Shown in pieces: positions 4,376 to 5,202 of a stretch of DNA of 10,040 bases. The position numbers and the translations under genes are program-made. Under the pieces are notes generated by a model. It was not told the DNA's origin and did no database searches. It saw nothing but the letters and a program-made list of their open reading frames with translations. The stretch's first letter is position 1; every line of letters begins with the position of its first letter. This stretch comes from a virus, in UHGV virus genome UHGV-0351092. One strand, given 5' to 3'.

Positions 4376-4663
4376 TCACTGACTGCAATTTTTCGATCCA
4401 GGGTATTTCCTGAATGCCTTACCATTGGGCTGATGTAATCCCATCCCGGCATGTGCCCGGCTGATGGTTTCGCGCATCTCCCCGAAATTATCCTGCCGTG
4501 CTGGTGGGCGTGCTGCCTTGCGGATACATTCCGCGCGACGTTTTGCCGCCTGTTCCCGTGCCTTGTCATCATTCGCCAGCATGATGACCTCAGCCCACCG
4601 CGCCGCCGCTCTCCGGTACAGACCACGCGCTTCCAGTGCTTCCGCTTTGCTGTCGTGAATCAT
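4376..4663 (-). CDS. PerC-family transcriptional activator-like protein
   Basis: ORF-track 95 aa. N-terminal SKAEALEARGLYRRAAARWAEV and C-terminal PNGKAFRKYPG match the conserved pattern I recall for PerC/Pch-type regulators (from memory, not searched). ATG at 4663-4661 overlaps the upstream TGA as ATGA. Confidence 0.7.
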   Translation of the reverse strand: MIHDSKAEALEARGLYRRAAARWAEVIMLANDDKAREQAAKRRAECIRKAARPPARQDNFGEMRETISRAHAGMGLHQPNGKAFRKYPGSKNCSQ

Positions 4664-5202
4664 GCGCCTGTTTTCTCCTTTGCTACCCGGCGCTGACGTT
4701 TGCGCTTCTCATTCAGCGCCACCAGCCGCGTTTCTGCGTCCTGTTGTTCCTGTGGTGTCACCTCGCCGCACGGCTGGCCTTTCAGGTCGTAGCGTACCCC
4801 ACCAGCCATTAAGGCGCGGTAATAGCGCGGAGACTGCGCATAAGATGCCAGCGTCGCACGCAATGCCCCTGGACCGAATGCCAGCCCCCTGACGGCGAGA
4901 TCCTGCATCAGGTCGTCGAATATCCCCACCTTAAGCGGCTTCGGTGCTTCCCGGCTGAATAATTCAGGCCACAACTCAGTGAGGCGGTTAATGCGCCTGC
5001 GGTTTTTGCGCTGGCGCTTGGTCATATGCCGCCACGGTGTCGCCCCTGTGGGCTTCTGCTGCGCTTTCTGGTTACCGGGCATCACTTTATGCGCCGACGT
5101 GGTTTTATCCTGCTCCTGTGCCGCCTGCGTCGTTTTCTGCGGCGTGCCGTAAATGCCTTTAGGTTTTCTGTTAATGGTCAGCTTAGTCATGTTTTGCACC
5201 AT
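4660..5202 (-). CDS. ProQ/FinO-domain RNA-binding protein (FinO-like RNA chaperone)
   Basis: ORF-track 180 aa. Segment ELWPELFSREAPKPLKVGIFDDLMQDLAVRGLAFGPGALRATLASYAQSPRYYRALMAGGVRYDLKGQPCGEVTPQEQQDAE matches the ProQ/FinO domain signature (PKPLKxGI ... LR.AL..Y..S.RY..A...G..R.DL.G...G.VT). Lys/Arg-rich N- and C-terminal tails. First ATG at 5202 lacks an SD; the second ATG at 5190 has a weak GGTG. Confidence 0.8.
   Translation of the reverse strand: MVQNMTKLTINRKPKGIYGTPQKTTQAAQEQDKTTSAHKVMPGNQKAQQKPTGATPWRHMTKRQRKNRRRINRLTELWPELFSREAPKPLKVGIFDDLMQDLAVRGLAFGPGALRATLASYAQSPRYYRALMAGGVRYDLKGQPCGEVTPQEQQDAETRLVALNEKRKRQRRVAKEKTGA

Follow-up and report, generated by a model that had tools for sequence, protein, structure and literature searches.

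A FinO/ProQ-domain gene and a PerC-family gene joined by an ATGA overlap form a putative regulatory cassette of PICI-type phage satellites

Phage-inducible chromosomal islands (PICIs) of Gram-negative bacteria are defined by an integrase gene (int), an AlpA activator switched on by the helper phage, a pri-rep replication module and an origin (ori) in which iterons flank AT-rich DNA (PMC6092414). Two PICIs, EcCIEDL933 and EcCIMP1, both with int, AlpA, DUF4222, primase and ori (PMC6092414, PMC11773190), carry a gene of the PerC family (PchE of EcCIEDL933/OI-51 and EcCIMP1_025, respectively). A characteristic of PerC alleles is their variable activity on LEE1, an operon belonging to the enterocyte effacement locus (LEE), which ranges from activation through no effect to repression (PMC6092414, PMC11773190). 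The FinO/ProQ family of RNA-binding proteins has plasmid- and phage-borne members and a recurrent link to the control of mobile elements, with FopA acting in replication control (PMC9977716), and a ProQ/FinO-like gene of a PICI has been listed once before, as an accessory gene in Enterobacter (PMC13612085). Here, we describe a locus in which the two families stand side by side, on a stretch of 10,040 nucleotides from the UHGV virus genome UHGV-0351092, hereafter the window. Our literature search found no paper describing a coupled FinO-PerC pair or testing a FinO-like protein of a satellite. The components are already known or annotated, in that PerC in E. coli PICIs has been published and FinO in PICIs is so far an annotation only; the new point is a modest one, namely the fixed, PerC-coupled slot taken by a FinO-domain gene in many enterobacterial PICIs.

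The FinO/ProQ-domain gene lies on the minus strand at positions 4660–5190 and encodes 176 amino acids, or 180 if translation begins at an alternative in-frame ATG at 5202 (longest open reading frame [ORF] 4660–5202). It is followed on the same strand by the PerC-family gene at 4376–4663, which encodes 95 amino acids with a pI of 10.3. The stop codon of the former and the start codon of the latter overlap as ATGA (4660–4663; TGA of FinO and ATG of PerC, read as tcat on the plus strand), as the first-pass annotation had proposed. For the FinO-like gene, the start at 5190 (MTKL...) is more likely than that at 5202, because it is shared with most homologues and with the RefSeq annotation of near-identical islands; the ATG at 5202 overlaps the likely Shine-Dalgarno sequence, and the sequence alone is compatible with either start. 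Since the Pfam match of the PerC-like ORF begins at its residue 1, the PerC start is the overlapping ATG. The RefSeq annotation of both genes is already correct. The GC content of the two-gene cassette is 58–59%, compared with approximately 50% in the neighbouring genes. Four-nucleotide overlaps of the ATGA type are frequent as bacterial operon junctions. The one described here goes beyond chance, because it is kept in 108 related loci and in 66 distinct intact allele pairs. In the junction strings of these relatives, the sequence 5′ of the PerC ATG is variable and a well-spaced Shine-Dalgarno sequence is often missing, which would fit coupling by termination-reinitiation; the two genes are probably coupled translationally in this way.

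Profile searches upheld the assignment of both proteins. The FinO-like protein matched Pfam PF04352 (ProQ/FinO) with an E-value of 6.7e-25 (87.6 bits against a cut-off of 27) over profile positions 4–108 of 109, and its best sequence match in the PDB was the N-terminal domain of ProQ (5nb9, 1.6e-12), in addition to FinO (1dvo, 4e-11), NMB1681 and RocC. With a pI of 10.7, the protein comprises a disordered, basic region of about 55 residues, a FinO domain at approximately residues 62–148, and a long basic C-terminal helix. The AlphaFold2 (AF2) model reached pLDDT values above 87 over residues 61–170. When the predicted fold was submitted to Foldseek, the top 26 matches were all FinO, RocC, NMB1681 or Lpp ProQ, with a probability of 1.00 and target TM-scores of up to 0.84, and no other significant matches were returned. 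Residues K35, G37, R58, Y70, R80, D82 and G85 of ProQ align with K87, G89, R111, Y123, R133, D135 and G138 of the FinO-like protein; the roles of these RNA-binding residues have been described (PMC7192607, PMC9674577). A Tyr, an Arg and a Gly residue form the pocket for the 3′ nucleotide in the RocC-RNA crystal structure (RocC Y87, R97 and G52; ProQ Y70, R80 and G37; PMC7192607, PMC9674577), and this pocket is kept in the FinO-like protein, with R133 and G89 invariant and Y123 nearly invariant among 18 homologues. The Ser-Lys pair at the helix N-cap, through which RocC and ProQ contact the stem phosphates (RocC S70/K71; ProQ S53/K54), is replaced by Gly106-Pro107 in this subfamily; Arg111, the equivalent of ProQ R58, is retained just after the Gly-Pro.

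Compared with its described relatives, the protein resembles FinO of F-like plasmids and FopA of the IncI plasmid pCol1B9 in being small, basic and borne on a mobile element, with a single FinO domain behind a disordered N-terminal extension, and it has the fold and the 3′-end pocket residues in common with them (PMC9977716, PMC9674577). It differs from plasmid FinO in its sequence (30–37% identity), in its Gly-Pro N-cap and in residing on a satellite rather than a plasmid. Nor does its gene lie at the end of an F-like tra region with FinP, as expected of FinO proper; the setting is chromosomal and satellite-borne, and the Rfam search detected no FinP. Chromosomal ProQ, although it gave the best PDB match and has the RNA-binding residues K35, R58, Y70 and R80 conserved (PMC7192607), possesses a linker and a C-terminal Tudor-like domain, both of which are missing in the satellite protein, which ends about 15 residues past the domain helix. 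The scores against the NCBIfam models for FinO proper (NF010317, 66.9 bits against a cut-off of 136) and for the ProQ equivalog (NF003434, 61.1 bits against a cut-off of 127) are both below threshold, and the best NCBIfam alignment was that to FinO, covering residues 32–172 and including the N-terminal extension. These sub-threshold scores, together with the lack of the C-terminal domain, therefore set the protein apart as a minimal, FinO-like representative of its family.

The PerC-like protein matched PF06069 (PerC) with an E-value of 2.2e-32 (111.6 bits against a cut-off of 22.6) over profile positions 1–89 of 90. It is 44% identical to PerC of enteropathogenic E. coli (EPEC) and 46–51% identical to PchE and EcCIMP1_025, which belong to the same Pfam family. 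The protein is probably a small helical one resembling tetratricopeptide repeats (TPR) and lacking a recognisable DNA-binding fold, and it more likely acts on transcription via protein contacts. In EcCIEDL933, the PerC gene occupies the same slot as in the window, after ori and the gene for a single-stranded DNA-binding protein (SSB), whereas the PerC gene of EcCIMP1 is located at the far end of the island; neither of these islands has a FinO-like gene upstream of PerC. The perABC operon on the EAF plasmid of EPEC is similar in that its PerC gene also follows a small gene within one operon, but the genes of perABC do not overlap and PerA has no counterpart at the satellite pair. We rejected perB-perC as a homologue of finO-perC, PerB being a separate Pfam family with an hhalign probability of 0.4% to the FinO-like protein. 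Both satellite genes are under purifying selection, with dN/dS values of 0.26 for the FinO-like gene (0.205 within the domain) and 0.28 for the PerC-like gene.

To establish whether the pair behaves as a unit, neighbours were scored at approximately 160 loci, each of which codes for a relative of the FinO-like protein. A scan of species-representative genomes had yielded only three loci, and the census was therefore built on scans of IMG/VR and metagenomes. At all satellite loci examined, this relative stands directly after the replication module and before the morphogenesis or interference genes. The replication modules preceding it are of three types (RepA helicase, D5-type primase and DUF927 primase), with an SSB and a 257-aa protein as optional additions. 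Downstream, PerC was found in 103 of the 160 loci. In 24 loci, which belong to capsid-forming PICIs, its place is taken by an unrelated 82-aa protein (phrog_1957) ahead of a capsid operon, and the remaining 33, in which FinO stands alone on other genomic islands, have nothing recognisable there. A downstream ORF overlapped through ATGA was present in 108 loci, corresponding to 78 distinct nucleotide pairs, 66 of which are intact FinO-PerC pairs. All 66 intact pairs have the ATGA junction, although their FinO proteins are only 65–100% and their PerC proteins 54–100% identical among themselves, and they come from three genera including Salmonella and Citrobacter. Among 5,426 complete E. coli genomes searched by blastn, 239 contained both genes at a coverage of at least 80%, and 1,924 matched some part of the pair.

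The ends of the similarity between loci lie outside the pair. Upstream, similarity breaks about 20 nt 5′ of the FinO start, leaving a conserved leader (...AACGATGGGGCAAAGC-ATG) that is preceded, depending on the locus, by one of at least four unrelated types of iteron or by the end of the SSB gene (3′); the spacing between SSB and FinO is just 36 nt in one locus (L005). Downstream, similarity breaks after the hairpin or terminator behind PerC. These two recombination breakpoints indicate that the cassette moves as a unit that lacks a conserved promoter of its own and is terminator-ended. The suggestion in the first-pass annotation that the two genes form a unit has thus withstood the comparison, the junction persisting while PerC falls to 54% and FinO to 65% identity, and the pair behaves as a single inherited unit that is probably also co-translated.

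The same census supplies the material for a different account, that of two independent accessory genes sharing a variable slot behind ori, in which the ATGA would reflect nothing but the compact packing usual in bacterial operons. The slot is indeed variable, since SSB-PerC, SSB-FinO-PerC, FinO with the 82-aa protein, SSB-PerC-FinO (a reversed order seen in a few loci) and tandem PerC-PerC combinations all occur, and islands with FinO only are present in many E. coli genomes. Moreover, FinO also overlaps the unrelated phrog_1957 gene (ATGCCAGTGA) upstream of the capsid operon in the capsid-forming PICIs (L049–L061, L005 and similar loci). We nevertheless regard this account as unlikely. A single junction is maintained in 66 distinct allele pairs, across three types of replication module and three genera; the divergence of FinO correlates with that of PerC (Spearman 0.58), and there is no breakpoint between the genes. 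Further, in FinO-only islands outside satellites (L006, L143–L149 and similar loci), the FinO stop is followed by ATGA or CTGA and ATT CAC (MIH...). This remnant suggests a relic of the perC start and an ancestral FinO-PerC pair from which PerC was lost, rather than an independent origin of the FinO-only islands.

Gene content identifies the element as a PICI-type phage satellite of approximately 12 kb rather than the prophage setting assumed by the first-pass annotation. In E. coli islands 94–98% identical to the window, the order is a tRNA gene (Pro or Gly), int, a helix-turn-helix (HTH) regulator at the place of AlpA, AntA/AntB, YlcI/YnfO (in opposite orientation), an Icd-like gene, small ORFs, DUF4222, a RepA helicase, ori, FinO, PerC and terminators, and then a 57–59-aa protein, the phrog_6216/DUF2213 genes and a TerS-like HTH protein. 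The integrase and the HTH regulator, located at tRNA-Pro in L001 and at tRNA-Gly in L171, lie beyond the window, which ends inside antA. L171 measures approximately 12 kb from the tRNA gene to the distal end. In the versions from Salmonella salamae and Citrobacter braakii, Pfam Phage_AlpA and a primase are present along with ProQ and PerC, which again overlap by 4 nt, and defence-type cargo comes next. The element thus has the features of the published definition, with int and a regulator in the AlpA position at the attachment end (in relatives), and rep followed by an iteron-bearing ori with AT-rich DNA; its morphogenesis-type genes are limited to the DUF2213/phrog_6216 and TerS-like genes, and its size and lack of lysis or tail genes agree with a PICI. 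The FinO-PerC pair was absent among 50,697 phage genomes, in which distant FinO-domain matches occurred in a few large genomes only (e.g., Sodalis phage phiSG1), along with one PerC fragment. It is worth noting that a related island (L175; NZ_CP148430.1, 12,152 bp) was submitted under the label of a circular E. coli 'plasmid' that is non-mobilisable. Its gene content is that of an EcCIMP1-like PICI (integrase, AntA, DUF4222, Icd, TOPRIM/DUF927 primase and PerC), the circular form is compatible with excision, and it is probably an excised satellite.

The position claimed for the pair, between an origin and terminators, was confirmed. Directly upstream of the FinO ribosome-binding site lies the replication origin of the satellite (5191–5667), in which clusters of an iteron, CCTCACTTTT, flank AT-rich DNA. 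Eight copies with at most one mismatch are found within 5351–5668, a count reached in none of 200 shuffles, and the GC content of the stretch is 21–38%, with a minimum of 0.21. Published origins of E. coli PICIs have the matching layout (PMC6092414). Upstream of the origin, the rep gene (5668–7080, minus strand) encodes a RepA-type replicative helicase (Pfam AAA_25, E = 3.8e-44; full-length match to phrog_2850) that is named 'helicase RepA family protein' in relatives. On the other side of the pair, tandem terminators extend from about 4373 to 4296 on the minus strand. T1 (4345–4373) begins 3 nt past the PerC stop and consists of a GC-rich hairpin (GCCGGGA/TCCCGGC) followed by U6. T2 (4296–4338), identified by the terminator scan and by folding, is a hairpin of 12 bp whose 5′ flank is A-rich and whose tail is U-rich. 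The minus strand of 4288–4382 folds with an energy of -43.9 kcal/mol (z = -5.17). The T1 hairpin is kept after PerC across several otherwise different downstream contexts, and T2 in a relative (L012) has a double change from G-C to A-U that preserves the stem.

The statement that such a regulatory module is not normally tied to replication did not hold, the opposite being seen here: the FinO-like gene directly follows DUF4222, a primase or a helicase, ori and, in some loci, SSB, and FopA provides a precedent (PMC9977716). FopA acts with Inc and repZ on IncI plasmids, and FinO-domain proteins of plasmids control replication and transfer via cis-antisense RNAs (PMC9977716). The FinO-like protein could accordingly be considered part of the replication module, chaperoning an antisense RNA for rep expression or copy number, with PerC as a passenger. 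The invariable adjacency of the FinO-like gene to rep, ori and SSB and the above-mentioned best NCBIfam alignment to FinO, extension included, speak for this idea. Unlike the loci of FinO and FopA, however, the satellite locus yielded no FinP- or Inc-like antisense RNA in the Rfam search or in the promoter and terminator scans, and in the vicinity of rep no promoter/terminator pair in antisense orientation is conspicuous; PICIs have been described as being without copy-number control (PMC6092414); and many PICIs with the same rep types have no FinO. We consider a role of this kind highly unlikely.

The pair had also been proposed as a cross-talk module acting on host genes, a hypothesis that already exists for PICI-coded PerC proteins (PMC6092414). 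In its full form, it would make the pair primarily a host-directed module, with PerC as an activator of the LEE type and host RNAs as the targets of the FinO-like protein. LEE1 is activated by PerC and PchABC, and the same is said of some PerC alleles coded by PICIs (PMC6092414). EcCIMP1_025, which is 46% identical to the PerC of the window, strongly alters LEE1 expression; the direction of its effect in C. rodentium, however, is repression rather than activation (PMC11773190), and LEE1 fusions were reportedly unaffected by the alleles of EcCIEDL933 and EcCICFT073 (cited in PMC11773190). Additional support comes from RgdR of OI-51, a DUF4222 protein (PMC10877973) from the same type of operon, which is a published activator of LEE and repressor of motility even without helper induction (PMC3378721, PMC10877973), so that this operon type has host effects at basal expression. 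The RgdR homologue of the window (7077–7367, minus strand; Pfam DUF4222, E = 1.4e-19) overlaps the start of rep. It has HGD at the place of the functionally important RGD motif of RgdR, which is found at residues 20–22 of the EDL933 OI-51 homologue. Against a primary role on the host, the cassette is tied to the induced satellite cycle by its position and by the lack of a promoter of its own, and purifying selection is also seen in pairs from porcine enterotoxigenic E. coli, commensal, and bird and other animal isolates, as well as in Salmonella salamae and Citrobacter braakii. To our knowledge, most such isolates, including those of Salmonella salamae and Citrobacter braakii, lack LEE. A primary function in host cross-talk thus appears improbable to us.

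We tentatively favour, as a realistic possibility, the explanation that the two genes make up an accessory cassette with a regulatory role in a PICI-type satellite, working within the satellite cycle. Transcription of the cassette would come from the replication operon by read-through over ori, and its products would be made mainly after the helper phage switches the satellite on via AlpA, in the manner of the helper-induced AlpA activation described for E. coli PICIs (PMC6092414). PerC would then be translated by reinitiation after FinO, and hence in fixed proportion to it. Ligands of ProQ and FinO are intrinsic terminators with at least four U residues (PMC7367173). Because the Tyr, Arg and Gly of the 3′-end pocket are retained, the FinO-like protein may be expected to bind U-tailed terminator hairpins, and, like FinO, FopA and ProQ, either to protect them or to promote their pairing with complementary RNA. 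Possible ligands would be the 3′ end of the cassette's own transcript at T1/T2, which fits the description of such terminators, and transcripts of the satellite or of the helper. PerC would modulate transcription via protein contacts, and together the two proteins might tune the expression of satellite or helper genes while the cycle is induced. Any influence on LEE or other host loci would be secondary, varying with host and allele. A more specific proposal, which we hold to be quite unlikely, is that the FinO-like protein is a dedicated RNA chaperone of the satellite, produced jointly with PerC upon induction by the helper, which through a satellite or helper transcript either times the switch from replication to packaging or interferes with the helper, with PerC as the transcriptional arm of this switch.

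Several observations weigh against a satellite-cycle cassette of this kind. The partnership is not obligatory: PerC occurs without FinO in EcCIEDL933 (SSB-PerC), in EcCIMP1 and as prophage-borne pch genes, and FinO occurs without PerC in capsid-forming PICIs and other genomic islands. With Gly-Pro in place of Ser-Lys at the N-cap, hairpin recognition by the FinO-like protein may differ from that of its relatives. Read-through across ori is deduced from finding neither a promoter nor a terminator that is conserved, and a promoter-like site within the AT-rich ori (5363–5336) may act as an internal promoter; in the sigma-70 scan, promoter-like sites were no commoner than in shuffled sequences, and we make no promoter claim. 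A partner RNA did not emerge either, as the Rfam search (E ≤ 1) returned only sub-threshold chance matches, the two best of them over the terminators, and neither FinP nor any partner RNA. An antisense RNA inside finO was considered and rejected, the plus-strand terminator-like sites at 4982–4998 and 5141–5157 occurring at chance frequency (four sites against 2.6 expected).

The remainder of the window contains genes that surround this module. The block distal to the tandem terminators opens with the gene of a 59-aa basic protein without family match (orf59; 4001–4180, minus strand). It is preceded by two TGCAATSAT repeats 30 nt apart (4204–4242), which represents a weak enrichment (two against 0.4 expected, with two reached in 6 of 200 shuffles), and a TGCAAT-rich stretch also lies 5′ of the orf59 homologue in a different intergenic variant (L028 type). 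Further along, two adjacent minus-strand genes at 3383–3970 and 2647–3318 match positions 409–545 and 115–328, respectively, of phrog_6216 (545 aa). The latter encodes a DUF2213 protein with a weak match to a head maturation protease; the former is named 'NUDIX hydrolase' by RefSeq in relatives, a name supported by none of the searches made. At the distal end of the island, a minus-strand ORF at 2–1540 that runs off the left end of the window encodes a protein of at least 513 aa that contains a GmrSD_N/DUF262 domain and weakly matches the Schlafen AlbA_2 domain. It resembles NsnA and PD-T4-2_A of PADLOC and looks like anti-phage defence cargo. The ORF has a GC content of 37% and a GC3 of 0.29, the match of the E. 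coli relatives to the island ends at about 1616, and the ORF itself was matched in only three of the listed E. coli genomes, at approximately 81% identity.

On the proximal side, the sole clear plus-strand gene of the window is that of the YlcI/YnfO family at 8488–8793. It is divergent from the operon that begins with the icd-like gene, includes rep and finO and ends with perC, and convergent with antA, a position that recalls that of a repressor gene. The 501-aa minus-strand ORF called mechanically at 7923–9428 is a composite, in which the middle is antisense to ylcI and the last 50 or so residues are Icd-like (phrog_6196). Its N-terminal part has a homologue in EcCIEDL933, a hypothetical protein of 247 aa, and is conserved in Salmonella and Citrobacter; the substitutions there look codon-like by eye only, and RefSeq leaves most of 7923–9428 unannotated in relatives. 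A plus-strand RNA of about 75 nt at 9294–9405, with a promoter-like site and a strong hairpin, was rejected as an independent small RNA, because the region is the start of this conserved minus-strand gene with its EcCIEDL933 homologue; the folding z-score was only -2.1.

PICI satellites are widespread in the Enterobacteriaceae, in which they move virulence and defence genes, and their PerC genes have so far been treated as virulence cargo. Regardless of which explanation applies, the present results are of use in annotation, in that islands of this type are satellites and not defective prophages, and that 'PerC activator' is not to be read as 'LEE activator'. If the more specific proposal of a dedicated satellite chaperone is true, it would be the first description of a control step based on an RNA chaperone in a phage satellite, and would give the PerC genes of PICIs a role in the life cycle of the element. 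A satellite-cycle cassette would also extend the FinO/ProQ family to a third kind of mobile element.

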